From: Octopus vulgaris
Lineage: Eukaryota
Direction: 5' to 3'
DNA length: 64,000 bases
Assembly: GCA_951406725.2 (NCBI GenBank)
Contig: OX597818.1
Location: 124,620,001 to 124,684,000 of the forward strand
In this document: piece after piece, positions 15,010-63,260 of the stretch
How the letters are laid out: each line of letters begins with the position of its first letter
Numbering within the stretch: the stretch's first letter is position 1
Made by a program: the position numbers and the translations under genes
Notes under the pieces: model-generated
Told to the model about the DNA's origin: nothing
Database searches by the model: none
Seen by the model: only the letters and a program-made list of their open reading frames with translations

Positions 15010-15290
15010 ACAAAAATGGAACAAGAATGCAAAACATCCACACAGTTAGGAGATACAAAACAAGGACAACAAAATATCCAGACAGACATTACAAGGAAAA
15101 CAAGGCTGGGTCGTTCAGAGTTTTCTATCCTCAGTCGAGTTCCAGATTATCTTTGCAATTTCGGCTGGTTTTACTCGAGATTCCTCCAATCTGGCCGGCC
15201 CCAAGGAAAAAATAAGCTAAGAGCATTAGATTCCTTGGAAGAAAGCAGTGAATGCATATGAAAAAAGGACGGAAAAAAACAGAGAATGTA
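15010..15290 (-). mobile_element. ~280-bp non-autonomous repeat (family A) between (TA)n tracts
   Basis: Alignable by eye to 56415-56646 (same orientation) and 56670-56872 (inverted). Confidence 0.75.
15128..15184 (-). ncRNA. Reverse-order hammerhead-like motif, family A
   Basis: GGAA-TC-TCGAGT-aaaaccagcc-GAAA-TTGC-aaagataatctgga-ACTCGA-CTGAGGA. Confidence 0.6.
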
Positions 15291-15310
15291 TATATATACA
15301 TATATATATA

Positions 15311-15522
15311 GTAAATCCAAAAGAATGAAGAACAAACACAAAAAAAAGCAACAACCTGAGGATGTGGTACATGTAAAGTATTAGTAGATGCTCAGGGAAG
15401 GAAGGAAAGATGGTTCAACATTTCGAGCAAACACTCTTCTTCAGAAACAGAGGAAAGACCAATAGAAAAGGAAGGCAGATGAAAAAAAATTACCAACGAT
15501 TCACGTGGTTACATTTTGAAAT
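15311..15522 (-). mobile_element. Penelope-terminus-like small element with minimal hammerhead
   Basis: Minus strand: GTTT-CTGAAGA-A-GAGT gttt GCTC-GAAA-TG-TT-GAAC (15448-15413). Related to 27148-27345 and 27890-28065. Confidence 0.65.
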
Positions 15523-16969
15523 AACCAGAAGGGAATGGGTGAAGAAAAAGTTCTTTCTCAGACAGGAGAGTGTAAGAGAAGGAGGTAAGTGTGTGTATGT
15601 GTGGGTATGTGCATGCGCTCAAGTCTGTATGTGTGTGTGTAATAGCATGTGTGTGTGTGTGTGTAATAGCATGTGTGTGTGTGTGTAATAGCATTCTGTA
15701 TGTGTGTATGTGCATGTGCATGTGTTTATGTATGTGTACATGTGTGTGTGCGCATGTATGTGTGTGCATGTATGTGCGTGTTGTGTGTGGAAAGTATATG
15801 TGAAGTATATAAGCATTCATGTGTGTGCGCATGTGTGTATGTGTGCATGTGTGTGTATGTATGCATGTGTGTGTATGAGCATGTGTGTATGCTAGTGTGT
15901 GTGAGGTTGTGTGTGTGGAGGTATATATGCATTCCTCTGTGTGTGTGTGTGTGTGCATGTATGCATGTGTATGTGCGTGTGTGTATGTGTGTGCATGCAT
16001 GTGTGTGTATGTATGTGCAGACATGTATGTTGTGTGTATGTGTGTAGTGTATGTGTGGGAGGTATATGTGCATTCAAGTGTGTGTACATGTGTATGTATT
16101 TGTACGTGTATGTGTATATGTATGTGTGTGTATGTATGTGTGCGTTTATGCAGAAATAAAATAAAATGTAATAAAATAAGATCGATAAAAAATGGGGGGG
16201 GAATGGGGGAGGTAAAAATTTAAAAATGAATAAAAATTACAAAAAATAATAAATAGATACAAGATAAAAAATAAAAAATTAAATAATTAAAATTAAAGGG
16301 ATAAAAAAGAAATTAATGCAATTAAAAAGTTAAACAATTTGACAGAAAGAAAACGATAAAAAATCGAAAAAAAGGGTAACTGTAAAAAAGTGAGTGGGTA
16401 TAAGAAATGATGAAATAAGATAAAATAAAATAAAATAAAAGTTGGTTTTTTTTAAAGAGGGTGTAGAGACAGTCATTAAGAGGAGGGGGTTGTGTTGAGT
16501 CTCAAATGAATTTTTGTTTGTAGACTGAAAATGTAACACTGTCCCAGGCAGAGTTGCAAGAGTGTGGTTCCGTGGTGTAGGGTGAGGCCAAAACAGAGAT
16601 ATTAGAGGTGGTGATACATATATATTATATATATACATTATATATATATATGTATATAATATATATATGTTATATATATATATATAATATGTATTATATA
16701 TATATATATTATATATATATACATATATATATTATATATATATATATATATAAAAAGCACCATCCGTCCACGGGTGGCACATAAAAAGCACCCACTACAC
16801 TCACGGAGTGGTTGGCGTTAGGAAGGGCATCCAGCCATAGAAACACTGCCAGATCAGACTGATGCAGCCTTCTGGCTTCACAGACCCCAGTTGAACCGTC
16901 CAACCCATGCTAGCATGGAAAGCGGACGCTAAATGATGATGATGATGATGATGATATATATTATATATA

Positions 16970-18222
16970 TAGGTCATCCCATAAATAATGCAATTTTTTT
17001 AATACTTCTATTATTTTTCCAAATTAAGATAAGCAATGTTCTTTTTTTATCTAAAATATACTCTCCTTCATTATCTATTCGGTAGACTTGTAAGGCTCCT
17101 CTTTCCAAAATTCACTTGTCCATGACAAAAAATACTCCTCCAGTACTGTTCTGACCTCATCTATGGAATTCATATTTTTTCTGTCCAAACGATTTTGAAG
17201 ACAGTGGAATAAATGATAAGCAGTTAGGGCAATGTCCGGCGAATATGGTGGCTGGGGAATTCAAACTGCTCCATTCTTTGAAATGTCATCCTCGCTGCAT
17301 GTGACCAAGCTTTACCCTGATGGAAGAACACCTTTCATCCTGAAACCAAAGATGGTCGTTTTTCTAGTGCTGACTTAAACCACTGAAGCTGCTCACAGTA
17401 GATCTCCTTTGTTATCGTTTGGTTTGGGATTAAAAGTTCAAAATGGACTAAACCTTTCAAACAGATAACAACACCTTGCGTGGGTGAAGACTTTCTTTAG
17501 CCTGGGATGCCAGTGTTTCTCCTTTCCCTACCCACTGTCTTCAGCACTTGACATATTTATAGAGGACCCATTTCTCATCACCAGTCACTATTCAGTCCAG
17601 AAACGGTTCATTCATGAGACGTAACAGCAAAGAAGAGCACACATTCACTTCACTCTCTACACATGATTAGACTCAGAAAGTTTGTGAGGAACCCATTGAT
17701 CCAATTCACTGACTTTTCTGATGGCATGCAGGTGTCAATGAATGATTGAATGACCAAATCCAAGCTTCTCTGCAAGTTCCTCAACAGTTACGATGGGATT
17801 TTGTTTGACCAGGGTTTGCAGGACATCCTCGTTGAGCTCCCTGGATCTTCCATAGCAAGGCCCATCTTCTAGGTTGTAGTTTCCAGCTCGGTATTTCTGG
17901 AACCAATGTTGACACTGGCTTACATTTATTGTCTGATCCCCATATACTGCATTAATATTTCTCACACTTTCCATTGTGTTGTTGCCTTTATTGAACTCAT
18001 AAAGCAAAATATGCCTAATATACTTCTTTGTCACTTCCATCATAGCTTAGAAAAAATAACTGTTGAAATCGAACTGCACTCTTCAAAACATGCACTAAGA
18101 ATAAGTACAAGATAAAATTACTATCTTCTTTTATAGAAAGTTGATGCAGGTAGTTTATCCCATCCCTCTCTGACTTTTAGTTCATGCAATTAAAAAAATT
18201 GCATTATTTATGGGATGACCTA
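16970..18222 (-). mobile_element. Full-length degenerate mariner
   Basis: TIRs TAGGTCATCCCATAAATAATGCAATTTTTTTA / TAAAAAAATTGCATTATTTATGGGATGACCTA; N-terminal IRHILLYEF HTH region; WVPHKL and GDEKW remnants. Confidence 0.92.
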
Positions 18223-18235
18223 ATAAATCAATATG

Positions 18236-18285
<50 letters not shown>

Positions 18286-18316
18286 TAACGGACGCTAAAC
18301 GATGATGATGATGATG

Positions 18317-18358
<42 letters not shown>

Positions 18359-18499
18359 TACACACACACACATATATACACAGTGAGAGAGATGGAGGAG
18401 AGGGAGCAAGGGAAAGAGAGGGGAGATGGAGTGATGAGGAGAGAGGAAACAAGAATTTAGAACATGTGATAGGTGGGGGGGTGAAAAGATGGAGGTGCA

Positions 18500-18532
<33 letters not shown>

Positions 18533-19248
18533 AGATAGGGAGGAGTGGAGAGGAGAGAGAGAGGAAATTGGCTGGAATAGTGCATGTAAAAGAGAGTAGA
18601 GATACTATAGTGAGAAAAGGTGGTGAGATGAATGTTAAAAAAAGAGAAGCACAATAGAAGGTTAGTTGGATAGCATGAAAGACAGGTGTGTGATGGTGAT
18701 GATAATGATGATGCTGATGATGATGACGACGACAACGATGATGAGGATGATGATGATGACGATGAAGAATGAGAGAAGTGGAAGAAAGAGAAAAAGGTGG
18801 GGAAAAAGAAAGTATTCAATGAATTAAGGTTAAATAGTGTAAAAAACAAACTGCTGCTTCTGATCCTCAGGTGCTCTCTGATTGAGTAGACTTATAATCA
18901 TTCCAGCCATGACCATTCCATCGTTTTCCTATGTGCAGGGAAGCCAAGAGCATGTTATCCAATGAAAATAAGGTTTGATTTGGGGGACGTTGTTCTGCTC
19001 CCGCTTGGCCCCTTGTGTCTGAGGTGGGTTTATATTATATGTGAAAGTAAGGAAGGAAATTGATTTTATTCACAGCTCTCAAATAAGAGAGATGATGGGT
19101 TACAAGAACCTCCAAAACAACAGCTGAGATGTGGGGACTCTGATTCAGTGAGTGATTTAGAAATAAGCTAAACAAACCACAGCATAGGACCTCAAAATCC
19201 ACTGCGATTTCAAAATAATTACAAGGTACATATCTTTTCTAACCAGCC

Positions 19249-19308
<60 letters not shown>

Positions 19309-19374
19309 GTATATATGTATGTGTGTGTGTGTATATGTACATATATATATATATATATGTATATGTATATATAA

Positions 19375-19461
<87 letters not shown>

Positions 19462-19973
19462 TAAGCTTGCTTCCCAACCACATGGTTCTGGGTTCAGTCC
19501 CACTGAGTGGCACCTTGGACAAGTGCCTTCTTCTACAGACTCAAGCCAGCCAAAGCCCTGAGAGTGGATTGGTAGATGGAAACTAAAAGAAGCCCATTGT
19601 ATATATGTATATATACATATCAATACATATAGATACATACATGCACACACATATATATGTGGATGTATACATACACAACCATATGTGTGTGTGTGTGTAT
19701 GTATGTGCGTGCATGCGTGTGTGTGTTACTGTCTCATTGCCTTAACATCACATGATGTGTGGTAAGTAGCTTGCTTACCAACCACATGGTTCCGGGTTCA
19801 GTCCCACTGTGTGGCACCTTGGGCAAGTGTCTTCTACTATAGCCTTGGGCTGACCAAAGCCTTGTGAGTGGATTTGGTAGAGGGAAACTGAAAGAAGCCT
19901 GTCGTATATATGTGTTTATATATATATATCATCATCATCATTGTTTAACGTCCGTTTTCCGGGCTAGCACGGG

Positions 19974-20033
<60 letters not shown>

Positions 20034-21225
20034 GTGTGTGTTTGTGTCTGTGTTTGTCCCCCACCCCAACATCGCTTGACAACCAATGCTGATGTGTTTA
20101 TGTCCCCGTAACTTAGCGGTTCAGCAAAAGAGACCAATAGAATAAGTGCTAGGCTTTCAAAGAATAAGCCATGGGGTCGATTTGCTTGACTAAAGGTGGT
20201 GCTCCAGCATGGCCGCAGTCAAATGACTGAAACAAATAAAATAGTAAAAGACTAAAGAGTGAAAATATATCTGATCATGGGGAAATATCACCTTACTTAA
20301 AAACAAGTGAACTTTGACATCTAGAAAGGCATCCAGCTATAGAAAAATCTGCCTCAACAATTTCTGCCTAACCCATGCCAGGAAAAAGTGTTAAAATAAT
20401 GATGAGGACAATGATGATGATAGACATAAAAAGATTTTTAGGGACTCACCAAGTTTTACCCTTTAGCATTTAAACCGGCCATATGTTCTGAGTTCAAATT
20501 CCACTGAGGTCGACTTTGCCTTTCATCCTTTCAGGGTCGATAAATTAAGTACCAGTTACGCACTGGGCTTCGATGTAATCGACTTAATCCGTTTGTCTGT
20601 CCTTGTTTGTCCTCTGTGTTTAGCCCCTTGTGGGTAGTAAAGAAATACCTATCTGGCCTAATATTCTACCTGTTTTATGTTTAGACCAGCCAGATCCAGC
20701 CTTTCATACCAACCCTACAATGTCATTCTAAAAGTAGACAATCACATCATTGCAATCTCAAAGCTAAAAGATAATGCATGATTTAGTCAAAACAATCATC
20801 ATCATCATCATCATCATCCTTTAACAGCCATTTCCCATGCTGGCATGGGTTGAACAGTTTGATCAGAGCTAACATACCAGAGAACTACACCAGATTCCAG
20901 TTCAATTTGGTTTGGTTTCTACAGCTTTATGCCCTTCCTAATACCAACCACTTTACCATGTATGCTGGGTGCTTACACCATGCACCAGCATGATAATGTG
21001 ACACTGGCACAATGTGAATAAATAAGCATTACATTTGACAGAGTAATCTGAATGCTAAAGGGTCACATCCAGCACTTCTTGAGTGGATATGTGCAGAGAA
21101 ATATCGGTAGGTTTGTATTGTTTATTCTATATGTAACACTTGAATGGTACTGTTATCACAGACAGCTATGTGAACTGGTAGCAGACAATCACATAACTTG
21201 AAGAGTGATGGTATTGCTAAGAAAG

Positions 21226-21552
21226 GCGGCGAGCTGGCAGAATCGTTAGCACGCGGGGCGAAATGCGTAGCGGTATTTCGTCTGTCGCTACGTTCTGAGT
21301 TCAAATTCCGCCGAGGTTGACTTTGCCTTTCATCCTTTCAGGGTCGATTAAATAAGTACCAGTTACGCACTGGGGTCGATATAATTGACTTAATCCGTTT
21401 GACTATCCTTGTTTGTCCTCTCTGCGTTTAGCCCCTTGTGGGCAGTAAAGAAATAAAAGTTACACACTGGGGTCGATATAATTGACTTAATCCGTTTGAC
21501 TGTCCTTGTTTGTCCTCTCTGTGTTTAGCCCCTCGTGGGTAGTAAAGAAACA
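21226..21552 (+). mobile_element. tRNA-derived SINE family 2 (Meta-domain-like core) with duplicated 3' part
   Basis: GTTCAAATTCC B box; core GCCTTTCATCCTTTCAGGGTCGAT..AAGTACCAG; TSD GGTATTGCTAAGAAAG. Other copies at 1-216, 2228-2415, 11900-12072, 20486-20647, 48508-48678(-) and 50340-51170. Confidence 0.88.
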
Positions 21553-21744
21553 GGTATTGCTAAGAAAGAACATGGGAGTTATCATTGACTCTGATGAAAA
21601 TAATGTAATTTGTGAAAGCACATGGCCTAGTGGTTAGAGTGTTGCCCTCGAGACTGCTAGATCATGGGTTCATTTCTCTGACTGGGCGATACATTGTGTT
21701 CTTGAGCAAAACACTTCATTTCACATTGCTCCATTCCCTCTTTC

Positions 21745-22466
21745 AATCAGTGGGGAATGTTAAAATGGCAACTGTCGAGTTGCATTTTCATCTCAGAGAA
21801 GAGATAGAAATCTGCAGGTGCTAAATCTGGCAAATAGGGTGGGTGCAGAAGCAATACCATGTTGTTTTTGGTGAGAAAGTCATGAGTGAGGAGAGCTCAG
21901 TGATAGCGTGCATTGTCATTGTGAAGAATTCAATTCTTTGCACTCAACAAATTCAGTTGCTTTTGCCAAATGTCCTCCCTCAAATGTTTCTAAACATCAT
22001 AGTAGAACTCTCAATTGATGGTCTGGCCCTGTGGAATGAATTCTCAATGCACAATACCCCATTCCCAGGGGTGACCCTTGTGGCAGGTCTTCCAGATCGC
22101 TCATTGTCTTCCAGGAACATTTTTCTGATTTTGAAGTAGCCATGCCACTCAAAACATTGCATACAACCCATTGCCTCATTGCCATAAGCTTGCTGAAGCA
22201 CACTCAATGTCTTTATAGCAGACTTCCCAAGTTTGACACAAAATTTCACATTGGCTCTTTGTTCCTGTCCATGACAAAATTGCAGACTACAGTATACACG
22301 TGATCACTAAAACACAAATTTCACATCTTATGAAGTAAACACAGCAATGTAACTCAGCACACTGCTTCATGAAGGTCACTGCTAGCTTTCATTGTGCTTG
22401 CAACTATGTGCTGCCATTTGTTGGTGTACAACAAAACTAGTCTGTGAACTTTTTGATACCACCACA
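21745..22466 (-). mobile_element. Internally deleted mariner fragment
   Basis: KFCVKLGKSA...YG...FEWH..F...LEDNERSGRP fused to the HNDNA..HPPYLPDLAPADF region; one TIR-like end near 22466. Confidence 0.85.
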
Positions 22467-22549
22467 TACTTCAAAAAATTCTGTGTGACCCAAGCAAGGT
22501 GGGGAAAAAATTGAATGCAGCTGCTGCTGCTGCTGCTGATGATGATGAT

Positions 22550-23012
22550 GAGGAGGAGGAGGAAGAAGAAGTGGAGGAGGAGGAAGAGGAAAAGGAAAAG
22601 GAGGAAGAAGATGAGGAGGAGATAGAGGAGGAAGAGGAAGAGGTAGAGGAAAAGGAGGAAGAGGAGGAGGAGGAGGAAAAGGAAAAGGAGGAAGAGGAGG
22701 AGGAGGAAGAAGAAGAGGAGATAGAAAAGGAGGAGGAAGAGGAGGAGGAGGAAGAAGAAGAGGAGACAGAAAAGGAGGAGGAGGAAGAAGAAGAGGAGAC
22801 AGAAAAGGAGGAGAAAGAGGAGGAGATAGAAGAGGAGGAAGAAGAAGAAGAGGAAATAGAGGAGGAGAAGATAGAGGAGGAGGAAATAGAGGAGGAGGAG
22901 TAAGAGGAGATAGAGGAGGAGGGGAGGGGGAGTAAGAGGAGGAAGAAGAAGAGGAGATAGAGGAGGAGGAGGAGAAGGAGGGGAGGTGGAAGAGGAGGAG
23001 ATGGAAGAGGAG
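22550..23012. repeat. GAG/GAA polypurine tract
   Basis: Direct inspection; a comparable polypyrimidine tract lies at 48890-49270. Confidence 0.95.
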
Positions 23013-23514
23013 AACAATGGGACAATGACGATGATGGTGATATTCCAAGATTTGAAATATCTTGATTGCACTCTCATTAGGCTCCATTTCAAGATTAAAC
23101 CAATTTAACACAATCAACATCAACATAGAACAATACCGTTTTTTTTGTCATGTAAAATAATTTCACTTTTCATTTTCAGAATAATTTTGCATTAATTTTA
23201 TTGAATATTTTTGTCAGGAAAAAAATTTCTAACAACTTTTTAACTATTTAAATTGTACAAATTGACTTGCTTAAACTTAATCTTTTTTTTTTCCTACTCA
23301 TTAACCAATTTAGTAAACCGCACTGCACCCATGCATTTTTGTTAATTATATTGACTTCAGTAACTATTTCAATCTTGTATTTAATTTATTCAACAGCTAA
23401 GTCATGGAATATAAAGGGATACAACACTGGTGTTAGCAAAAGATGGAGGAGAGGGAGCAAGGGAAAGAGAGAGGAGATGGAGTGATGAGGTTTCAAATTT
23501 TGGCACAAAGCCAG

Positions 23515-24051
23515 CAGTTTGGTGGGATTACAAAGGTGTTGTGTATTTTGTGCTGCTTCCAAAGAACCAAACAAACCATTCAGATGTTTACTGTCAACAA
23601 CTAATGAAACTGGAGGATGCAATCAAAGGAAAACGGCCAGATTTGGCATATCATAAAGGAATCGTGTTCCACCATGAAAATGCTAGACCACATACATCTT
23701 TGCTAACCCATGAAAAATTATTGGAGCTTGGTTGGGAAACGATGTCACATTCATCATATAACCCTGATCTTGCACCATCAGAATTCCATTTGTTTCAAAA
23801 TTTGCAAAATTCTTTGAATGGCAAAACTTTCAATAATGATGATGACCTGAAATCACACTTGCCTCAGTTTATGGCTGATAAGGACCAGAAGTTCTGAGTG
23901 CGGAATCATGAAGTTTCCAGAAAGATGGCAAAAGGTCAATGAACAAAATGGAAAATATATAAATTGATTAAAGTTCCTTCTTTGTATTAAAAAAAAAATA
24001 TGACTTTTATTTCACACTAAAAAAACCGAAATTACTTTCTTGCCAACCCAA
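23515..24051 (+). mobile_element. 5'-truncated mariner (C-terminal half plus right TIR)
   Basis: VWWDYKGVVYF..., FHHENARPH, SYNPDLAPSEFHLF; ends AATTACTTTCTTGCCAACCCAA-TA. Confidence 0.9.
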
Positions 24052-24444: not shown

Positions 24445-24481
<37 letters not shown>

Positions 24482-24482
<1 letters not shown>

Positions 24483-24630: not shown

Positions 24631-24699
24631 CATATTACTCTACCCTTGGTATTTGAGTACTCTTATTTCCACCTTGTTTCACATTTATGTGTTTACTCC

Positions 24700-24785
<86 letters not shown>

Positions 24786-24820
24786 TATATACATATATAT
24801 ATACATATATATATATATAC

Positions 24821-24856
<36 letters not shown>

Positions 24857-24990: not shown

Positions 24991-25044
<54 letters not shown>

Positions 25045-39496: not shown

Positions 39497-39913
39497 GGCG
39501 CAGGAGTGGCTGTGTGGTAAGTAGCTTGCTAACCAACCACATGGTTCCGGGTTCAGTCCCACTGCGTGGCATCTTGGGCAAGTGTCTTCTGCTATAGTCC
39601 CGGGCCGACCAATGCCTTGTGAGTTGATTTGGTAGACGGAAACTGAAAGAAGCCTGTCGTATATATGTATATATATATATGTGTGTGTATGTGTTTGTGT
39701 GTCTGTGTTTGTCACCCTAGCATTGCTTGACAACCGATGCTGGTGTGTTTACGTCCCCGTCACTTAGCGGTTCAGCAAAAGAGACCGATAGAATAAGTAC
39801 TGGGCTTACAAAGAATAAGTCCCGGGGTCGATTTGCTCGACTAAAGGCGGTGCTCCAGCATGGCCACAGTCAAATGACTGAAACAAGTAAAAGAGTAAAA
39901 GAGTAAAGAGTAA
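39497..39913 (+). mobile_element. tRNA-derived SINE family 3 with internal TA/TG microsatellite and (GTAAAAGA)n tail
   Basis: TGGCTGTGTGGT A box, GGTTCAGTCCC B box. Other copies at 13165-13570, 19756-20260, 47645-48095(-), with fragments at 19462-19600, 51340-51480 and 54430-54580. Confidence 0.9.
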
Positions 39914-40043
39914 GACAGTCAGTCACCGGCTGACACTCGCTGACAATACATCGAAGAGGCCAGGGAACAGAAGAAAGAACACACGCACCCAACACCAGAA
40001 GCTGAAGACACCTCCAAAAGGAAGGACCCCGCAACGTCAAAAC

Positions 40044-40088
40044 GGTAGAGGAGTAGGGGCCGAAACCAGACGTGGTTCCTCCTGATGA
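40044..40088 (+). ncRNA. Reverse-order hammerhead-like motif, family B
   Basis: GG-TA-GAGGAG-taggggcc-GAAA-CC-agacgtgg-TTCCTC-CTGATGA. Confidence 0.5.
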
Positions 40089-40540
40089 TGTCTTGAGCTA
40101 ACTGGATCCTATAAAGGAGCTGTTGTGGTAGCAGACCACGAAACACGGTTGAAATTCCTCCTATATCTATTCATGTATAATACCCATTTGTCTTCTCCAC
40201 TCATTATTCTTGGGATGGTCATGGGTGGGTAGAGTCCTCAGGTACCTCCTCCGTAGGATTTTATTAGAATCAACTCTCATTACACTTTCTGGTTGGATTC
40301 TTAAGTGCGACCAACTAAGACTATGGATATATTATTCAATCATCACATCCTCAGTCTACCTCGTGGTCTCCTGCCAGGAGGCTCATCTTGAATCTGTCTT
40401 GCAATTCTTTTCTGTGACAATCTAATTCCATGTCTGTAGTACCAGAGCTGTGACCACTCAATGGAGAGGAGTAGTATCTCAACCTGGAGAGACTTTCTGA
40501 TCTTCGCGCTAAGCACCTTGCTGAGTAATGTTACTCCAGT

Positions 40541-42100
40541 GGTCACTCCGAAAAGCTCTATCTGTGACGATTTCATCTCAATCGAAGGAGAGGGGCTTTC
40601 TCCGTCCGGGTTGCGGATCCGTGGAATAAGCTGCCGGACGAGATAGTGAAGATGCCAACGACTGCTCGGTTCAAAGTCTCCCTTGACCACAAATAGCCTG
40701 AACTCTTTGCATGAACACCACCCTGTACATACGAGGGACATTCAATAAGTAATGCCCCTGACCCATTTGCAGTTGTTTGATCTAGCTGAAATTTTGCACG
40801 TGCAATCATTTATATCTCTATAGAGTAAGTAACAAATTACAGCTCTGAACTACTTGTGGTTTCTGATTTACAGGTGTTTGAACTGAGTCAAGTGTGAAAT
40901 GGAGCCTGTTGAGTGTTGAGCAGTGATCCGGTTTTTGTATTTGAAAGGACGCACACCACGGGAGACTTTTGATGAAATGAAAGTAACTTATGGTGATGAT
41001 GCCCCATCATATGACCTTGTAAAATGCTGGCATCGTGAATTCAAACATGGTCAAAACTCTGTGGAAACAGCTCCCAGATCTGGTCACCCCGCTTCTGCCA
41101 TTGATGAGGCATCTGTCCGTCAAGTTGAGGCTGCCATTTTGGAAGATCGACGCATAACTATTCGCCAAATAGCCCATGAGGTCAAGATTAGTACCGGGTC
41201 TGTGGAAACTATCATTCATGACCATTTGCATATGCAAAAGGTGTCTGCTAGATGGATTCCCAGGTTGCTCACACCTTTCCAGAAGCAAGAACGCGTCGAG
41301 TGCTCGAGGATGAATTTGGAGATGTGCCAAGAAGATGAGTCAAAATTTTTCAAAAACTGATTACAAAGGATGAAACCTGGGTCCATCACGATGATCCAGA
41401 GACCAAAGCCCAGTCAATGCAGTGGAAGCACCGTGACTCACCCCCTCCAAAGAAGGCAAAGGTGCAGCCCTCCGCTGGCAAGGTCATGCTCACAGTCTTC
41501 TGGGACTAGGACGGAGTAGTGATGACAGATTTCCTGGCAAAGGGTACCACAATTACAGGAGCCTATTATGCTTCACTTTTGAGGAAATTAAGAGAAGTTA
41601 TCAAAATCAAGAGGCGGGGCAAGATCAGCAAAGGCATCCTCCTCCTGCAGGACAACGCTCCAGTCCACAACTCGCTTGTCGCCAGATCAGAAGCACAGGC
41701 GTATGGCTATGAACTCCTCCCCCATCCCCCCTACTCTCCTGACCTTGCACCCTCTGATTTTCACCTCTTCCCAGTCATGAAGTTGTTTTTGAAAGGAAAG
41801 CATTTTCCAGATGATGCAGCCTTGATTTCTGAAGTCACGTTGAGGTTGGAGGACCAAGCTGGGTTCTTCTACAAAAACGGTCTCCAGAGCCACATCAAAC
41901 GATGGGAGAAATGCGTAACTCTGGGTGGTTCCTATGTAGAAAAAGACTAATAACTGTGCCAAGTTTCGTTACTCTACTGCTATGGGAAGTGGGTCAGGGG
42001 CATTACTTATTGAACGCCCCTCGTAACTCCATGTCCCCCTACATGGCCTTGCTTTTTGCTTTTTGAGCCAAAAATTAACTTAACTTAACCTAACTTAACT
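40541..42100 (+). mobile_element. CR1-type LINE 3' end interrupted by a mariner
   Basis: Same sequence as the 3190-3605 copy (FSVRVADPWNKLPDEIV), with (AACTT)n tail at 42075-42100. Confidence 0.85.
40732..42023 (+). mobile_element. Full-length mariner with pseudogenised transposase (about 40899-41950)
   Basis: TIRs CGAGGGACATTCAATAAGTAATGCCCCTGACCCA / TGGGTCAGGGGCATTACTTATTGAACGCCCCTCG; TA duplication; WIPRLL, DETW, QDNA and HPPYSPDLAPSD motifs; stops near 40917 and 41507, frameshift near 41355. Confidence 0.96.
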
Positions 42101-51947: not shown

Positions 51948-51980
<33 letters not shown>

Positions 51981-53734: not shown

Positions 53735-54420
53735 AAAAATAACCAATTCTTTATTATTATACTTTCTTTCTTTTTACTTATTAGTTTAGGGGAAGAGGCA
53801 ATACCCAAGATCTTTACATGTGCTCTGAAACCAATGAGTTTGATATTATTAAGGTTCCGTTTAAACTGTTGCATGTCAACACTTACACGAAAGACCAGCA
53901 AGGAGGAAATTCCAAAGGGCTGATGTTCTGGGAGGAAAGGACTGAACATAGTGATTTGTGCGCAACCAGGGGTGTTGGACACAGAAGGGGTGATGAGAGG
54001 TGAAGAGTTAAGTTAGTCAGGGGTGCATGAGTTGTTAAGTACAAGACCAGCCATCTCCAAGAAACAGAGACCATTATAGTAGCAATAGAAAAGACAGTGT
54101 GCATGTGGGCTAGAGACAGGAGTGCCTCTGTTGGTGATAAATAGCCATTCTCTGGATGCAGTCAAGAATGTCTGTGTGCATAGCAGCAAGCATCATTTTA
54201 GATATGGGAGTTATATTCCAACGTGAACCTGACTGGGGTTTTGCAAAGTACCAAAAGCTGAACTGCTGAGATATTTTCTGGTGTTAAAGAGAAGGGCCAG
54301 ACTTTGGAATGCAGTCCCAGTTATGATAAAGATGTACTTCCATCAGGAGAAATTCTCAGTGATAATGAGGCCCAGCATTTGGAGTATGAGTAGCATTGGA
54401 GTTTTTTTCCTTTTTTGCTG
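53735..54420 (-). mobile_element. Degenerate CR1/L2-type LINE fragment (a similar piece lies at 26280-26620)
   Basis: Degenerate LINE-like peptide remnants with many stops; clade assignment tentative. Confidence 0.45.
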
Positions 54421-54574
54421 TTATAGGTACAAATGTGGTGGTGTGGTAAGAAGCTTGCTTCTCAACCACATAGTTTTGGGTTCAGTCCCTCCTCACAGAA
54501 CCTTGAACATGTGTCTTCTAATATGACCTTGATCCAACTGAGTGGACTTGGTAAATGGAAAGTAAAAGAAGCCT

Positions 54575-54625
<51 letters not shown>

Positions 54626-54630
<5 letters not shown>

Positions 54631-54773
54631 TGCCTCGGTGGTCTTGTGGGTAAAGACATGTGTTGGCAATGAGAAAGCCAGGGTGGGGTTCAATCCTACT
54701 CATGGCTTGTATTAAGGGGGTCTTACAAAACGGCGGTGCATCAGCATGGCCGCAGCTCTGAGCTGAAACTAGA

Positions 54774-54782
<9 letters not shown>
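54626..54782 (+). mobile_element. Short tRNA-headed SINE sharing the family 3 tail
   Basis: GGTGGTCTTGTGG...GGTTCAATCC head; tail GGCGGTGCATCAGCATGGCCGCAG...CTGAAAC-A(n). Confidence 0.6.
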
Positions 54783-54804
<22 letters not shown>

Positions 54805-55364
54805 TACAAGTAGATAAATGGTACAACAAGGCACCAATATTTACTGGAAAATAGCAATCGTAATAAATACGACAATATTGTATAGCTTCACTGCGTATAT
54901 ACTAGCAAAGATGCGTGTCTCTTTGTCTTCCTCTCTATATATATATGTATACACACACACACACACACACACACTCACACACACACTCACGCACAACACA
55001 CACACATGTGAATATATGCATATCGTCATCATAATCATCATCATTTAATGTCTGCCTTCCATGCTTACATGGGTTGCATATATATATATACATATACATA
55101 TATATATATATATATATACAAATATATATACACATATATGTATGCATGTGTATAGATAGATATATATACACACACAAACACACACACACACACACATTTA
55201 TGCATACACACGCACATATATACCTATATGTATGTATATAGTATATGTGTGTGTGTGTATATATATATATGCAACCCATGTAAGCATGGAAGGCGGACAT
55301 TAAATGATGATCATCATGATGATGATATGCATATATTCACATGTATGTGTGTGTGTGTGTGTAT

Positions 55365-55433
<69 letters not shown>

Positions 55434-56196
55434 AAGACAAAGAGGCAGAAAGATATAGAGAAAGAGAGCTATGTGTGTGTGTACATTTGCACTTGCTTTT
55501 GTCCACCTCCTCCAGCATGACAACCAGTGTTGGCTTGTTTCTCTACCTGTAACTTAGCAGTTCGACAAAAGAGTCCAACAGAACAAGTACCAGGCTCAAT
55601 AAGTAACAACTGGGGGCGATTTGTTTAACCAAACCTTCAAGCTGATGACGCCCAGCATGGCCATAGTCTAATGACAGAAACATTTAAAAAAATAAAATAA
55701 GCAAATAAAATCATATACTTAAATGCTCTTTTAAGAGAAAATGAATTAATGAAAGCCATATGGTAAAAATTTAATCAATGTCTTTATTTATATATGCCAT
55801 AATCCTGACATCAAGAATTTGAATTTATTTTGAATTTCAAATATACAAACTTATCCATATTAATGAAATAAAAATGTAACATTCTGAATATTATTTTCCT
55901 CTTTAATCAGCGTTGTAGAAGCATTTATCAAAGATCTCTACACAACATTATGGAACATATCAAGAATTTTTAAAATCACCTACGCTATTGAAAGAAAATG
56001 AATGTTACATGTAACTCCTACGAATTTCACGAAGGAAAATCACAAAAAAAAAAAAAAAAATTTTTTTTTCATTTCTCAGGGGGAAGAACTCAGGTATGAC
56101 TAATAGTTTTTGTAAGGACTGCACAGAAAATCACGTTATATATATATATAATACATTTCTAAATCTCTCAGAGAGAGTTATGCAGAAGTGATACGA

Positions 56197-56384
56197 TAAA
56201 GTAGTTATATGCTGTCAACTTAATGTGACAGTCCCACGAAGGGAATAATACTACTGCTATTTAGCCCTAGGAAGCAATACTGCTTCCTGTCAGCCATGCA
56301 GTGCTGCTTCCTAGGGCTAAATAGCAGTAGTATTATTCCCTTCGTGGGACTGTCACATTAAGTTGATAGCATACAACTACTTTA
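56197..56384. repeat. Near-perfect hairpin, 87-bp arms, 14-nt loop
   Basis: 56197-56283 against 56298-56384: 4 mismatches. Confidence 0.95.
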
Positions 56385-56532
56385 TGTGTGTGTGTGTGTG
56401 TGTGTGTGTATAAAATACAAAATGGGACAAGAGCACAAAACATCCGGACAACTAGGTGACACAAAAAAGGACAACAAAACATCCAGAAAGAGGATACAAA
56501 GAAAACAAGGACGGGTCATTCGAAGCTTTTTA

Positions 56533-56589
56533 TCCTCAGTCAAGAACCGGATTATCCTCGCAATTTCGGCTGATTAATCTTGAGATTGC
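56533..56589 (-). ncRNA. Reverse-order hammerhead-like motif, family A
   Basis: GCAA-TC-TCAAGA-ttaatcagcc-GAAA-TTGC-gaggataatccggt-TCTTGA-CTGAGGA. All core nucleotides and stems I and III are intact. Confidence 0.65.
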
Positions 56590-56776
56590 TCTAATCTGGC
56601 CAGCTCCAAGGAAAAAACTAAGCTGAGAGCATTATATTCCTTGGAAATATATATATATAAATATATGTAACATTGTCCCGTTTTTTTCTGTCCTTGTTTT
56701 TGTATACATTCGCTGCTTTCTTCCAAGGAATCTAATGCTCTTAGCTTAGTTTTTCCTTGGGGCTGGACAGATTGGA

Positions 56777-56833
56777 GCAATCTCAAGTATAATCAGCCAA
56801 AATTGCGAAGATAATCTGTTACTTGACTGAAGA
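56777..56833 (+). ncRNA. Reverse-order hammerhead-like motif, family A (GAAA changed to AAAA)
   Basis: GCAA-TC-TCAAGTA-taatcagcc-AAAA-TTGC-gaagataatctgt-TACTTGA-CTGAAGA. Confidence 0.55.
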
Positions 56834-56912
56834 AAGAAAACTTTGAATGACCTGTCCTTGTTTTCTTTGTATATATATATATGTGTGTGTGTGGATGTAT
56901 GTATGTATGTGC

Positions 56913-56956
<44 letters not shown>

Positions 56957-56958
<2 letters not shown>

Positions 56959-57090
56959 CCAAAATAAGCAACAGGATATCAAAAAGTGATGCAGACGACC
57001 GTTTCAAGCGGCTCCATTTAATTGAACAATGCAATCATTTCATCAATTTAAATGCAGGGCTATCCTTAGCTGCACAAATAAATAAATAGA
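56957..57090 (-). mobile_element. Penelope-terminus-like fragment, hammerhead with long stem II
   Basis: Minus strand: TGCAG-CTAAGGA-...CATTTAAATTGA/TCAATTAAATG...-GAAA-CGGTCG-TC-TGCA (57074-56990), abutting (TA)n. Confidence 0.5.
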
Positions 57091-57489
57091 ATTTTAATCA
57101 GTCGGACACATTAATATATTAATATAATTTTACTCAACTACTCTAATAGAGCAAAAAGATGTCACTATTGTAGCTAAGAATATACTACACTTCCAAGAAA
57201 TGTATGAAGTTTGTTGGAGTCATAGCTTGTAAAGGATTGTGGTTCATTTTTAATTTATTAGTCTTTTTATCAACTACTAAATCTAAGACTAGAAGACTGT
57301 GTCTGTTTAGAATGGAGGGCAGGAGTGAGTTGACAGCTCATACCTGAGTATGGTCATAAATATTGTCAAGATTTTAGGAGTAGTATAAAGTAACTATCTA
57401 TAAAGGAGGTTGGGTAGGGGTAGATCCAGAATCAAGATGTTAATTACCAGTTAAAGGGGCAAGATACTAATAAAAACTATGATGCTAAT

Positions 57490-57523
57490 ACAGATATATA
57501 GATATGTGTGTGTGTATGTTTGT

Positions 57524-57582
<59 letters not shown>

Positions 57583-57637
57583 CATATATATATAGATACA
57601 TACATATATATATATACATATATATATATACATATAT

Positions 57638-57678
<41 letters not shown>

Positions 57679-57779
57679 TATACATACATATATATATACA
57701 TATATATATACATATATATATACATACATATATATATATACATATATATATACATATATATATATACACATATATATAC

Positions 57780-57866
<87 letters not shown>

Positions 57867-58072
57867 CATATATACATACATATATATACATATATATATA
57901 CATATATAGATATATATATATATATACACATATATACATACATATATATACATATATATTCATACATATATATATACATATATATACTTACACATATATA
58001 TACATATATATATATACATATATATATACATATATATATACATATATATACATACATATAATATATATATAC

Positions 58073-58103
<31 letters not shown>

Positions 58104-58150
58104 TATATACATACACACATATATATATATATATATACATATATACATAC

Positions 58151-58215
<65 letters not shown>

Positions 58216-58332
58216 TATATACATACATACATACATATATATATATATATACATACATATATATATATATATACACACATACATACATATATATATATAT
58301 ATACATACATACATCTATATATATAGACATAC

Positions 58333-58366
<34 letters not shown>
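57490..58366. repeat. ~0.9-kb compound (TA)n/(TACA)n microsatellite
   Basis: Direct inspection. Confidence 0.95.
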
Positions 58367-58488
58367 CATCATCATCATCATCATCGTTTAGCGTCCGTTT
58401 TCCATGCTAGCATGGGTTGGACGGTTCTACTGGGGTCTGTGAAGCCAGAAGGCTTCATCATATATATACATACATACACACACACACT

Positions 58489-58528
<40 letters not shown>

Positions 58529-58533
<5 letters not shown>

Positions 58534-58754
58534 GATAATCCCCCAACTATTGCGGGTGTTACGTTAAAAAAAAAACCTGCAATAGGTGAAAATCCGCGAA
58601 GCAGAAACAGTATTGTACTGTATATATTTTTTTAAATTTTTATAATTTGTATATATGCATTTTATTTTAAATGCAAAACAACACGACGGAGGAATCGATG
58701 AAGCTTAAATAAGTAACAGCGATAGGTGAACCGCAATATGGCGAGGGATTACTG
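58529..58754. mobile_element. Tigger/pogo-type MITE
   Basis: Right end GCGAGGGATTACTG-TA, diverged left end; internal GCGATAGGTGAA-like repeats. Confidence 0.6.
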
Positions 58755-58935
58755 TAATATTGTTATTACTTATATCTTGTTTAGAGATTTTAGAACTAGC
58801 TCCTATATATAAATATATATATATACATACATACATATATATATATATATGTGTGTGTGTGTATATATGTGTGTGTGTATATGTATATATATATATATGT
58901 ATGTATGTATGTATATATATATATATGTATGTATG

Positions 58936-58977
<42 letters not shown>

Positions 58978-58983
58978 GATATA

Positions 58984-59015
<32 letters not shown>

Positions 59016-59019
59016 CATA

Positions 59020-61518
59020 CAGTGGTGGGTACGGTTCCTCTAATCCACTAACAGCTAATTAGCAAAACTAACTTTTCGTTTAGCAAATTAGCATTTTCAC
59101 TAACTTTGGAAACCATTAGCAGACCAATTAGCTTCTGCTAAATTTAGTTCCACTAACTTCAAGTACACTAGCAAAATTCATACATATGTTCCCATCTGTT
59201 GTGAGCATGTCTTGAAGAGTCTGTCAGGCACGCTACTGGCTGATTATGTGTACACGTGACAAGACGTAGTTGCTCAACGCAGCAGTAATTAGTTAAGCAG
59301 CACTGTGTAATTCTACAGTTTTGAGTTGTGTTCACTTACGACATTGTCACATTACAGACAGTGTTACAGTGTCAGCGAGGGCAGTGTACATTATCGGCTT
59401 ATCAAGTTATTGCTTATCATTATGGAAGGTGAAGATGTCTTTGTTCGGCCAGAGGATGAAGGGCCTGTTGAGGAGTCTGCAATGGTTGTGGGTGAGGCAG
59501 AGATTTCTCAGGTTGAGAGCTAGGAATCTCAGAACCTGTGGCCCCACATGGAGGACTACTTTGTCCTTACGTCTAGGGATAAGAGGAACACCAAAATCTT
59601 GTACTTCCGATGTGTCATGTGCCAGCCCAAGGAGACCACCATCAAGGGACAAGCAGTGAGCCTTTACAACTTATATATATTCCACTCACAATTAAGTGTG
59701 CACACCCAAAAAAAGCAGTCTTTAATGAAATAACAAATAAATGAATCTTAAGTTCTGAACTTATTAAATTCTGACCATCATTCCATCCCTCATCTCGGTT
59801 ATTCATCACCCCCAATACGTCACCTGTCAAGGTAGTGTAACTAATTTCAAAGGTTTAATAACAAGGCTTTAAATTATGAGCAATATTTCGATGAATTTAA
59901 AACAGCCTAGTTACAAATGTTAAACTACAATTTGCTTATACAAGTTCCATGTGCAAAACAAAATGACCAGGATCATGACGGACAATAGCAAAAGCTTTGT
60001 TAAGGCATTTATGCAGTTTGGAATGGAAGTTGAACTCTTGACAGATCTGGACATGGAGGGTGCCAAGGATGTAGACTTATATGTAGATCCTGAGGCTGAG
60101 GATGTGGATGAAATTGAGTACATCTCTATTGATACCATCCTTGACAAGTCCAGCAGTCTGGGCCTAAACCTGCTAGTGCACATGAAGTGCACAGCCCATA
60201 CCTTCAACTTGGTAGCCAGCATGGATGCCATCAAAGCTCTTGACAGTGCTTCATTCAAGTCAACCTGCAGGAAGGCCATGTCCAAGGCACAGCAGCAGTG
60301 AAACCTGCAGAGTCGCAGCACAGTGACAGCAGACAGCATTCTGGATACGTTGAAGAGGAGGTTCGTGGCCCCCAAACAGTACCAGATGGAAATCTACCTG
60401 TGACTCTGTTGCTGTCCTCAACAACCTGTTGTAGTATAGGGGAGCTGTCCACAAGGTGATGACACAGCTAAAGCTGCAGACTTTCACTGATTCTAATGTT
60501 GGTTTCCTGATGGAGTATGCCCAGGCAATGTCTAATGTTGCCAAGGCCTTGGATAAAATCCAGGGAGAGGAGCAGGCTTATCTCAGGAGCTTTCTGTCAA
60601 CTGTAGCGGCTACCGTCATGAAGTTGAAGGAGGTGAAATTCAAACATCTGTACTGCAGTCCTCTGGTAGATGCAATACTGGAAGGCATCATGAAAAGGTT
60701 TGAGCTCCTCTTAGAAGACATGGAGTGCCAAATGGCTGCTGCTTTCCACCCCAAGTTTCACCTGGTCTGGCTAGAGCAGTATAATAACAGCCAGGTTAAC
60801 AGAGTAACGAATGCCATAAAGACTGTCAGAGAGACAGCCCTAATGGAGACCAATGAATAGAACAGCAGAACCATCAGCAATGAGGATGAGGGAGATGATT
60901 TCTTCAGCAACATCACTCAGTTCCAGGAGAGAAGGAGCTATAAGTCACTGAAATCCAAGGTGCAGAACTTGGTGAAGACTTGGCTGGAGGCCGTCTCGAA
61001 GGAGGTCTTGACTTAAGTCGCCTTTTTGGGCAGACCAGGTCTTGATCGACATGTTCACCGAGTATAATATTTCCATCTCATCAAGTGTTGCAGTTGAGTG
61101 CCTATTCTCCGTAGGCAAAGACATTTTGAGGGCCAAGAGAGACACTCTGTCAGATGGTAACTTTGAAAGGCTGATGTTTATGAAGGGCAACCAGCATCAT
61201 GTCAAGATGATGGAGAAGGCCCAGCCACAGTAGTACACCTTAATCATCATCTGACCTTGGCATGCTATACCTTTTTGGAAAGCTCTATGTCTAAGCTACA
61301 TGGTCTGTTTTTAGGAGGTTTAGAGTTGAAAAACCAAGCCAAAACTAAATTCATATGATAAAAGTTAGTGGTTATCAGTTAGCATTAGCTTCTGCTAATT
61401 TTTTCACTCGTTCAAGCAGTTTAGCAATTGCAAAGCTAACTTGTTTAGTGGTTTAGCAATTACAAAGCAGACTAGCGTATAGCAAAACTAACTTTTTGGT
61501 TAGCTGTACCCACCGCTA
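59020..61518 (+). mobile_element. hAT DNA transposon with pseudogenised transposase
   Basis: TIRs CAGTGGTGGGTACGG / CTGTACCCACCGCTA; subterminal TTAGC/GCTAA repeats; BED-finger-like WPHMEDYF..CVMC, TDNSKSFVKAF, CTAHTFNL, TRW and hATC SSVAVECLFS..LSDGNFERL motifs. Confidence 0.92.
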
Positions 61519-62589
61519 TCATCATCATCATCATCATCATCATCGTCGTTCAACGTCTGTTTTCCATGCTAGCATGGGTTGGACAGTTTGACTGGGATCT
61601 GGGAAGCCAGGAGGCTGCACCAGGCTCCAGTCTGATCTGGCAGTGCTTCTACAGCTGGATGCCCTTCCTAACGCCAACCACTCCGTGAGTGTAGTAGGTG
61701 CTTTTTACATGCAGTCATTAGATTGCGATCATGCTACGACACAACCTTGAAAGACTTTTGGTAGTCGAATGAATCATCAATCCCCAGTACTTTTTTAAAG
61801 CCTAGTACTTATTCTATCGATTTCTTTTGCCGAGCCACAAAGTTATGGGAACGTAAACACACCAGCACTGGTTGTCAGGCGATGGTGGAGGGACAGCCAC
61901 AGACACAAAGGCACACACACACACATCTTTTATCTTTTACTTGTTTCAGTCACAAGCTTATGGTCATGCTGGGGAAATTGTCTTGAAGGAATTTTAGTCA
62001 AACAAATCAACTCCAGTGAATTATTTGTTCAGCCTGGTACTTATTCTATTGGTCTTTTTTACCAAACTGCTAAGTTATGGGGACATAAAAAAAACCAGTA
62101 GCAGTAGTCAAGTGGGAGGAGGACAAACAAAAAAAACACACATATACAATGGGCTTCCACACAGTTTCCATCAAACAAATTCATCCACAAGGCATTGATC
62201 CAATCATTGGAACAGCCTGTATGTAAGATTAACGTGCAAGTGGCTGAGCACTCCACAGACACATTCATCCTTAACATAGTTCTCAGGAAGATTCAGCATG
62301 ACAAAGTAACTAAGCTGGCCCTTTGAAATACAAGTACAACTCATTTTTGCTGGTTGAGTGGACTGGAGCAATGTAAAATAAAGTGTCTTGCTCAAGGACA
62401 CAACTCATCACTGGGAATTGAACTCACGACCTTACAATCTCGTGAGCTGAATCCCCTAACCACTAAACCACATGCCTTCACACACACACACATACACACA
62501 CTCACACATATACAGGTGTGTGTGTGTGCGTGTGTGTGCACACGCAGGCTAAATTAAGGTTGTTATTCAAAACCAATTTAAAAACAAAC

Positions 62590-62693
62590 AATGGAACATT
62601 TTCCGATTAGGAGACTCAATATTGAAAGGGTCATATTTATTGCAAAATTCATTTTGACTGGGATCATTTTCATTCAACACCTTATTCAACCAG
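62590..62693 (-). CDS. Candidate upstream IQCK exon (104 bp): WLNKVLNENDPSQNEFCNKYDPFNIESPNRKMFH
   Basis: Non-repeat sequence with acceptor gcttatttAG, an open frame and a weak donor GTttgt. It leaves a phase-1 T that would give TGT (Cys) with the GT of exon 53087, recalling IQCK ...KTCSPKEYL. No clear homology otherwise. Confidence 0.35.
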
Positions 62694-62857
62694 CTAAATA
62701 AGCAGTCAAATAAAACTTAAAACCCCAGGCAAAACAAATTTTATAATACATATGCATATGCACACACACATAAATATAGACGTTCTACTTACTACTGCCT
62801 CCAATTTCTTATAATTATTCCTGTCAACAGCCTTATCTTCAACTACATGAAAACTTC

Positions 62858-63260
62858 CTCGAGGAATGTGAAGACGCAGGCTGGAAAGCGGAACATTTTC
62901 CTATCGAAGTCGGATAGAGAGGGTTTGTTGGACACAGCGTGAGACGACTGTTGTTATCGTTAGGCCTAACTCATCGTAAAGTCAATACCACCATGACTGA
63001 TATCCAATCTACAGTGGAGAAGGCTAGCCACTGGATTTGGTTAAAAAGAGACAATGAGCGATGGCTAGAAGGATATTGAGTTTAACTTCATAACCAGCTG
63101 ATCTAGCAAGCGGGGCCTCATATCAGTGAGGGGGGGGGGCGGTGCATATTGATGCCGTCGAGAGGTAGGCCCCAAAACGGCGCGCATTCTCTCCTGATGA
63201 CCCCATACACTTGCTAGCTTCCGGTATACGGAGCTTTTAACTGGTAGCACTTGCATGTGC
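62858..63260 (+). mobile_element. 3' end of a HERO/R2-group (RLE) LINE
   Basis: LEECEDAGWKAEHFPIEVG*RGFVGHSVRRLLLSLGL...VEKASHWIWLKR, stop near 63079, then 3' UTR. Confidence 0.8.
63153..63200 (+). ncRNA. Reverse-order hammerhead-like motif in HERO-like LINE 3' UTR, family C
   Basis: TGCCG-TC-GAGAGG-taggcccc-AAAA-CGGCG-cgcat-TCTCTC-CTGATGA. Confidence 0.55.

Follow-up and report, generated by a model that had tools for sequence, protein, structure and literature searches.

A predicted hammerhead ribozyme with a split core in retroelements of Octopus vulgaris

In the account of hammerhead permutations given by Eckert et al. 2023 (PMC10085705; cited, like the other papers below, for the parts accessible to us), the three blocks C, G and S are assumed to be uninterruptible, block C being the run stem I strand-CUGANGA-stem II strand, and six orders along the chain are therefore possible. 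Closest to the RNA considered here are type SGC, a form of 583 sequences with demonstrated cleavage in which a short linker connects stems I and II and a fourth helix is present, and type CSG; in those parts of the paper the former is known only from metatranscriptomes and the latter from two metagenome sequences, with no genomes of known organisms among the sources. We analysed a 64,000-nucleotide (nt) stretch of Octopus vulgaris DNA, hereafter the window (assembly GCA_951406725.2, contig OX597818.1, positions 124,620,001 to 124,684,000, forward strand), in which five repeat loci of three families, A, B and C, have the order S>G>C (UH, GAAA, CUGANGA). This order, with paired stems I and III, was reported in a preliminary description of the window and was seen at all five loci; it had been thought undescribed there, a view contradicted by the published type SGC. 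Taking all the evidence together, we consider with good confidence that the best explanation of these loci is a cis-acting, self-cleaving hammerhead with a strand topology outside the published six, predicted from sequence comparison. The proposal made in the preliminary description, of a pseudoknotted single-molecule hammerhead carried by retroelements, in which a short linker connects stem I to stem II at their distal ends, is supported.

Alignments of genomic copies (30 of family B, 30 of A and 20 of C) gave the following layout, read 5' to 3': PA5'-P0 hairpin-II5'-J5'-III3'-UH (predicted cut)-I3'-linker of 1-5 nt-II3'-GAAA-III5'-J3'-I5'-CUGANGA-PA3'. No stem II after CUGANGA was found in these aligned copies, and the earlier judgement that stem II is poor came from inspecting that downstream position: in each family the partner is a separate 5-6 nt strand lying about 20 nt upstream of the predicted cleavage site, which pairs with the bases preceding GAAA, G10.1-C11.1 first, to form a stem II of 5-6 bp. 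The P0 hairpin stands directly 5' of this strand, PA is formed by the strand directly before P0 and the strand directly after A9, and J by the bases after the stem II strand and those before the stem I strand; with these three further helices the element is about 115-145 nt long, which replaces the extent first given. Because CUGANGA and the 5' strand of stem II are separated, the latter being located upstream, block C is split at A9|G10.1, and the topology deduced from the alignments is that of the CSG/SGC ring closed and then reopened at A9|G10.1, inside the core.

Longer copies of families B and C extend into an open reading frame (ORF), relatives of which (28-60% identity) are encoded by 79 metagenome loci (best 80 of 539 confirmed). 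A descriptor of the split-core fold matched 47 of the 79, all on the sense strand and 43 of them 50-211 nt 3' of the ORF match, with no minus-strand match in any of the 79 loci; 20 shuffles of 257 kb gave 0.5 matches (range 0-2). Although the descriptor allowed one mismatch, the core was exact in 45 of the 47. Copies of a single family are near-identical, so that copy number alone proves nothing and chance descriptor matches in repetitive DNA have to be considered, but 47 matches against 0.5, specific in strand and position and spread over elements of 28-60% protein identity, make the probability of this explanation negligible.

To guard against circularity, the loci were re-anchored on the core and stems I and III only, which gave 50 of 79 loci and, after dereplication at 80%, 34 non-redundant elements. 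Stem II paired 5/5 with the upstream strand in 32 of the 34 (34% in the swap control) and with the strand after CUGANGA in none, the pairing amounting to 99% against 37-56% in slid registers; G10.1-C11.1 was present in 30 elements and G16.2 in 33. Helix J paired 6/6 in 25 elements (9% in controls) and the P0+PA junction 10/10 in 22 (control 49/1122), stems I, II, III, P0 and PA each showed four or more pair types, and for all 17 tested pairs the mutual information was equalled by at most 1 of 2000 permutations. By our own pair counts, A15.1-U16.1 occurs together with covarying stems I, II and III, as in hammerheads, and the structural counterpart is provided by helix J and the short covalent linker. 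Between stem III and J a kink-turn (k-turn), which consists of a 3-nt bulge followed by tandem G-A pairs, is present in its canonical pattern in 18 of 34 elements, the chance level being about 2% by a hand estimate, and a one-sided bulge of 3-6 nt takes the same place in several other elements and in families B and C.

These counts also decide how the RNA relates to its nearest published relatives. An ordinary type SGC hammerhead whose weak stem II stood immediately 3' of CUGANGA would share the order S, G, C, the short linker between stems I and II and the helix 'I' of that type, to which our helix J corresponds, and a lax descriptor accepting G-U pairs does file four loci as SGC; an unbroken block C was, however, found in 0 of 34 elements against 32 of 34 with upstream pairing, and the strand after A9 pairs instead with the strand before P0, so that this reading is very improbable. 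Types I, II and III have the cyclic order C>G>S around a three-way junction without a core pseudoknot, whereas the order here is S>G>C with crossing stems. As judged from sequence, the split-core RNA is thus a hammerhead lying outside types I-III and outside type SGC. It had been predicted that standard type I-III descriptors would miss the fold, and a type I/III descriptor indeed found none in the window; standard type I/III folds built from the same cores gave only 2 weak matches in the 79 loci, one of them overlapping the motif, and were rejected. Rfam returned no match for 20 intact loci at E<=1 and no hammerhead family for the window among the 150 matches listed of 185. Reverse-strand, HDV-like (hepatitis delta virus-like) or pistol readings were dropped by eye, in line with the absence of minus-strand descriptor matches, and an upstream CUGAAGA in family B, considered as a second core, proved to be part of PA.

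Some observations weigh against the fold or against the size of the effects reported. The pair counts lean upward because of the selection and kinship of the elements, stems I and III having served as selection criteria and the stem II register having been taken as the best match. Of the 32 loci without a match many are short of 3' sequence and at least three are truncated or decayed (L187, L192, L202), and about ten have a tail of at least 200 nt with no such fold. The nested minimum-energy folds of RNAfold, in which pseudoknots are impossible, contain alternative pairings that sequester the core in several examples. Even so, comparison of these sequences establishes the six predicted helices, the invariance of the core and a location shortly after the ORF, and we are close to certain that the split-core fold is real. 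The 3' tails of L221, L222 and L227 contain divergent elements with an intact core and a short or displaced stem II, and that of L178 a CUGAUGA within an unparsed fold; these may be further variants. In families B and C and in L152, L153, L155 and L159 the 5' strands of P0 and stem I are similar, which allows the P0 3' strand to pair across the first bases of CUGAUGA, and the rod-like alternative fold modelled in this way is a possible off-switch, the count being one without a control.

In the window, features related to the fold are as follows.

15112..15254, minus strand: family A1 split-core hammerhead (PA5' 15254-15239; P0 hairpin 15238-15201; stem II 5' strand 15200-15195; U16.1/C17 15180/15179; predicted cut 15179|15178; GAAA 15162-15159; CUGAGGA 15134-15128; PA3' 15127-15112)
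14996..15303, minus strand: 5'-truncated copy of family A, a non-coding tandem unit of ~795 nt with its 3' end adjoining (TA)n
39995..40105, plus strand: family B split-core hammerhead (PA5' 39995-40010; P0 40011-40024; stem II 5' strand 40025-40030; U16.1/A17 40046/40047; predicted cut 40047|40048; GAAA 40062-40065; CUGAUGA 40082-40088; PA3' 40089-40105)
39912..40160, plus strand: putative 3' untranslated region (UTR) of a 5'-truncated restriction-like endonuclease (RLE) non-LTR (non-long terminal repeat) retrotransposon, family B, with the ORF in the longer copies L020 and L027
56520..56644, minus strand: family A2 split-core hammerhead (P0 56644-56606; stem II 5' strand 56605-56600, with an A10.1 mismatch; U16.1/C17 56585/56584; GAAA 56567-56564; CUGAGGA 56539-56533)
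56707..56850, plus strand: family A split-core hammerhead, predicted to be catalytically dead (G12->A at 56799; PA5' 56707-56721; P0 56723-56760; stem II 5' strand 56761-56766; U16.1/C17 56781/56782; CUGAAGA 56827-56833)
56401..56872: inverted pair of 5'-truncated family A copies around (TA)n (56401-56646 minus strand, 56666-56872 plus strand)
63103..63217, plus strand: family C split-core hammerhead, predicted to be dead in this copy (G12->A at 63174; PA5' 63103-63115; P0 63116-63131; expanded G run; stem II 5' strand 63136-63140; U16.1/C17 63158/63159; predicted cut 63159|63160; CUGAUGA 63194-63200; PA3' 63201-63217)
62847..63278, plus strand: 5'-truncated copy of the putative RLE non-LTR retrotransposon family C, containing the end of the endonuclease ORF (stop at about 63077-63079)

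The split-core descriptor found all five loci and nothing else at a score of at least 16 in 264 kb around the window, which lies in a 2.80-Gb genome of 227 contigs rich in microsatellites. The descriptor suggested in the preliminary description, run with an exact core, stem I of at least 6 bp and stem III of at least 3 bp, matched three of the five loci and gave 0.0 matches (maximum 0) in 40 local dinucleotide shuffles. GAAA, claimed for all loci, is present at three of the five; the loci at 56777 and 63153 on the plus strand read AAAA (G12->A). The core CUGANGA/GAAA/UH is accordingly exact in three of the five copies, and each of the five carries 1-4 damaging substitutions. The A1 copy has an intact core with a single mismatch each in stem II and stem III and a k-turn pattern at the stem III/J boundary, the family B copy an intact core with point damage within P0, II, J and III, and the A2 copy has lost the PA 5' strand by truncation; compared with A1, subfamily A2 shows double changes in stem I, two in number and compensatory, and in J. 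Of the copies fetched from the genome 27/30 of B, 19/20 of C and 19/30 of A had an intact core and all helices passing, fractions that are biased since the best look-alikes were fetched. On this sequence evidence, a single conserved RNA fold is genuinely present at all five loci, in copies that have decayed.

In families B and C the right end is fixed and the left end varies through 5' truncation, and the ORF of the longer copies ends in a zinc knuckle followed by PD..ELTV..EVG.RG endonuclease motifs; in the family C copy of the window the ribozyme-bearing 3' UTR follows directly 3' of the stop of the endonuclease ORF. The homologs of this ORF are reverse transcriptase (RT) proteins of 850-1200 aa with PF00078 and some also with PF13966, their alignment has invariant PD..ELTV and C..C..H..C columns, and their best PDB matches are R2 and L1 ORF2, while Pfam searched with the ORF C-terminus alone returned no family. 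By sequence, B and C are RLE non-LTR retrotransposons with a single ORF (RT, zinc knuckle, C-terminal PD-(D/E)xK) and a fixed 3' end, which from their C-terminal motifs we take to be HERO-like. They are related to each other, with ORFs 37-46% identical over the main matches and an alignment of their ribozyme DNA better than 300 of 300 shuffles, so that of the three families first called unrelated only A stands apart. A hairpin and a conserved GGAGCU...UGGUAGCA stretch are common to B and C 3' of the ribozyme (window 40095-40135 and 63211-63250), and this stretch is a candidate recognition site for the protein of the element. Beside the family B copy, at about 40920-41360 (L001 +900..+1338), lies what is presumably a fragment of a Mariner-like transposase.

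For family A, no ORF was shared by 22 loci, about half of which continue past the start of the ~795-nt unit into a previous unit, i.e., in partial tandems. The (TA)n target, the partial tandems and the inverted 5'-truncated partner, an arrangement described for Penelope-like elements, match elements of that class (PMC8557442). Family A was also considered as a non-LTR retrozyme with a type I hammerhead in each unit, which was rejected, the ribozyme being the split-core form instead. Next to the A1 copy, just upstream of it, a minimal hammerhead-like core (CUGAAGA, 3-bp stem II, GAAA) occurs at 15415-15446 on the minus strand in another short repeat and was missed by the type I/III descriptor, and a long, near-perfect, MITE-like (miniature inverted-repeat transposable element-like) inverted repeat at 56225-56350 adjoins the family A pair. 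The split-core fold was also found in further, unrelated families of this genome, in the flanks of L014, L053 and L271: these are pyrimidine-rich repeats ended by (TA)n (L014 +2230-2360, L053 +2480-2620, L271 minus strand 30-110) with a common GAGUAGAU motif at the stem III/J bend, possibly an extended kink, and with decayed relatives in L018 (~1300-1430) and L056 (~1715-1770). Hammerheads of standard order are present in other repeats of the genome, in type I order in L050, L108, L143, L231, L239, L248, L268 and L272 and in type III order in L240; most have a long stem II, and two form inverted pairs typical of Penelope-like elements.

Traces of cutting were sought in genomic junctions by counting whole-genome exclusion patterns around the predicted cut, position 0 denoting a copy that starts exactly at the scissile bond. 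When copies were first fetched with the predicted cut as the start of the query, 3 of 60 began at that point. For family C, 7 of 9 junctions between -7 and +6 fell at 0 and the other 2 at -2 (binomial 3e-7; tallied by eye from 13 matches, 4 having been dropped for internal deletions or inversions), and the 6 junctions between +7 and +20 each fell at a position of their own (17 matches, 11 dropped for indels, internal deletions or a place beyond +20), so that 7 of 15 5'-truncation junctions over 28 positions lie exactly at the predicted scissile bond. In families B and C, T stands at -1 in 8 of the 11 junctions caught at 0/-1, which would fit an untemplated dA added at run-off. We infer from the family C pile-up a partial cleavage in vivo and, for the smaller share of events, a run-off of the RT at the 5'-OH terminus of the 3' product; these genome fossils suggest real cutting by the predicted ribozyme, and cleavage at the predicted site, 3' of H17, appears highly probable.

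Several observations count against this interpretation. The junctions of family B form a looser cluster, with 8 of 9 within -2..+2, a window set post hoc (19 matches, of which 9 were set aside as deletions or ambiguous cases and 1 lay beyond +7). In family A the junctions do not pile up; their distribution is flat and dominated by (AT)n joins near +5 (100 of 108 matches listed). In family C, 446 copies run intact through the predicted site, so only a few percent of the family starts there, and no copies ending at H17 were found; cutting must therefore be incomplete, regulated or bridged. With no copy ending at H17, priming from the 5' cleavage product was rejected. One family C copy (L271 / G000:C2:172520378) has a 19-nt duplication, the first copy of which ends exactly at C17; this anecdote fits a template jump onto the 5' product. 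Depth rises 3' of the site in three of four contig runs (RNA status guessed) and in one of the four a contig starts 1 nt after it, observations that were left unused because contigs cannot show RNA ends.

The same observations lend something to a different explanation, in which a hammerhead-derived and mostly non-cutting 3'-UTR fold serves as a binding or priming structure for the RT and the pile-up is a structural stall: the 446 read-through copies and the missing pile-up of family A agree with it, other truncation points lie near helix edges (-36/-37, -58/-60), and nested folds often sequester the core. Against it, the catalytic bases C3-A9, G12-A14 and U16.1 are kept in 45 of 47 elements in which the helices have been fully rewritten, and the neighbours of position 0 hold 1-2 junctions at most; since a polymerase coming from the 3' end has copied all partner strands before position 0, a stall exactly at N1.1 would not be expected. 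We consider this explanation improbable.

If the cis-acting, self-cleaving hammerhead is correct, the RNA would adopt the ordinary hammerhead core in three dimensions despite the split chain, with PA stacked on P0 and both leaving the core at A9|G10.1 as a four-way junction. The k-turn or the one-sided 3-6 nt bulge would bend J back from stem III, so that J could hold stems I and II together at their far ends and substitute for the loop-loop contact; such a bend would also bear on the geometric puzzle of 0-nt links raised by Eckert et al. (PMC10085705). The cut after H17 would fall about 115 nt before the 3' end of the HERO-like RNAs, both products would be held together through PA, II, J and III, and most insertions would arise from uncut RNA or from a nick-bridging RT, with a few percent resulting from run-off at the cut.

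If two units each supplied blocks, so that cutting took place only in dimers or tandem transcripts, the strain of the double pseudoknot would be relieved; the preliminary description had allowed for an obligate dimer. Family A units do occur in partial tandems, some links from J to stems I and II are only 0-1 nt long, and small Penelope hammerheads reportedly cleave as dimers, but HERO-like elements carry one copy per element and co-transcriptional cleavage is documented for type SGC RNAs in which the J helix is the same and the links are about as short (PMC10085705). An obligate dimer is not required because a single molecule can form every helix, each of 4-7 bp or more and with closure by PA, and we regard this possibility as distinctly remote.

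Among known systems, type SGC and CSG hammerheads (HRIMA-1 and variants) resemble the split-core form in the cyclic order S>G>C, the two core pseudoknots and the short linker between stems I and II (PMC10085705). The stem II strand of type SGC, however, follows CUGANGA directly, whereas here that link is broken and PA and P0 take its place, and all three inter-block links are closed, unlike in type SGC/CSG; the split-core form is moreover a high-copy part of eukaryotic retroelements, in contrast with the metatranscriptome and metagenome origin of the others. The type I hammerheads in the pseudo-LTRs of Penelope-like elements and in non-LTR retrozymes (PMC8557442, bioRxiv 10.64898/2026.07.22.740005) likewise lie near the 3' end of a retroelement, and their hosts resemble family A in the tandem non-coding units, the (TA)n target and the inverted truncated partner; these ribozymes have the order C>G>S and are often minimal, whereas the split-core RNA is large, six-helical and non-circular in its permutation, and is found also in the RLE non-LTR elements, a class unrelated to Penelope-like elements. 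HDV-like ribozymes (R2 and other non-LTR elements) and twister (Schistosoma non-LTR) are also self-cleaving and carried by a non-LTR element (PMC13725137, PMC7650587), the HDV-like ones belonging to another ribozyme class and standing at the 5' end, whereas the split-core hammerhead lies in the 3' UTR, upstream of the priming end. The CChMVd (chrysanthemum chlorotic mottle viroid) (+) hammerhead, of type III, tolerates an extra A between A9 and G10.1 (PMC3705267, citing De la Pena & Flores 2001), which makes the exit of two stacked helices at that point plausible, although the insertion there is of one base and here of two helices and both chain ends.

Naiads offer a further comparison. According to Craig et al. 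2021 (PMC8557442) they lack canonical hammerheads, yet cores and 8 'half cores' were flagged in them. Of the 54 Naiad 3' ends, 13 were inspected by eye (supplement File S5 of that paper; names assigned by record order): the octopus elements Naiad_Obim and Naiad_Ovul, the latter a flagged half core, show the split-core fold, with a k-turn present and PA weak (2/13), Naiad_Hcon, Naiad-2_Nbra, Naiad-3_Nbra, Naiad_Hpol and Naiad_Smim are of type CSG with a long helix 'I' (5/13), Naiad_Smim having one extra U at A9|G10.1, and the remaining six were unparsed. These observations suggest that the split form arose from CSG when the ring was opened anew, and the two forms would account for the published puzzle of cores and 'half cores' without a canonical hammerhead.

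No description of the split-core form or of HERO hammerheads was found in the literature searched, mostly non-subscription text outside Repbase, figures and bioRxiv supplements; other hammerhead variants in the accessible parts of Forgia 2023 and Perreault 2011 are not split-core, and a search by terms alone of the SGC-variant alignments in the Eckert supplement gave no split-core match.

As to the role of the cut, it may separate the ORF from the 3' end used for priming and thereby tune which RNAs insert, a proposal to which we give somewhat less than an even chance. More tentatively, it may mainly trim read-through or tandem transcripts to unit length or to circles, a role reportedly proposed for Penelope-like elements and retrozymes and a better fit for family A. 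That the ribozyme is a mere hitch-hiker seems unlikely. We put at about even the fuller proposition that this seventh natural wiring is a near clade-wide module of HERO-like 3' UTRs, found also in some Naiads, which cuts in vivo and leaves a template that is nicked yet held by base pairing and usually bridged by the RT, self-cleavage then being a step or a switch in retrotransposition.

The predicted wiring runs against the explicit assumption from which the full set of six hammerhead permutations was derived. It puts a hammerhead into the 3' UTRs of a clade in the R2 superfamily, for which our literature search found none described, and the RNA lends itself to direct testing, natural covariants being available by the dozen. 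Elements of this clade attract interest as tools for gene insertion, where a cut 115 nt from the priming end would affect how templates are designed. Because standard descriptors and Rfam miss the split-core and CSG forms, the number of ribozymes in animal genomes has probably been underestimated; if the present reading is true, then hammerheads of non-circular permutation, with the CSG forms of other Naiads included, would be no metagenomic rarities but would rank with the most abundant ribozymes that animal genomes contain.

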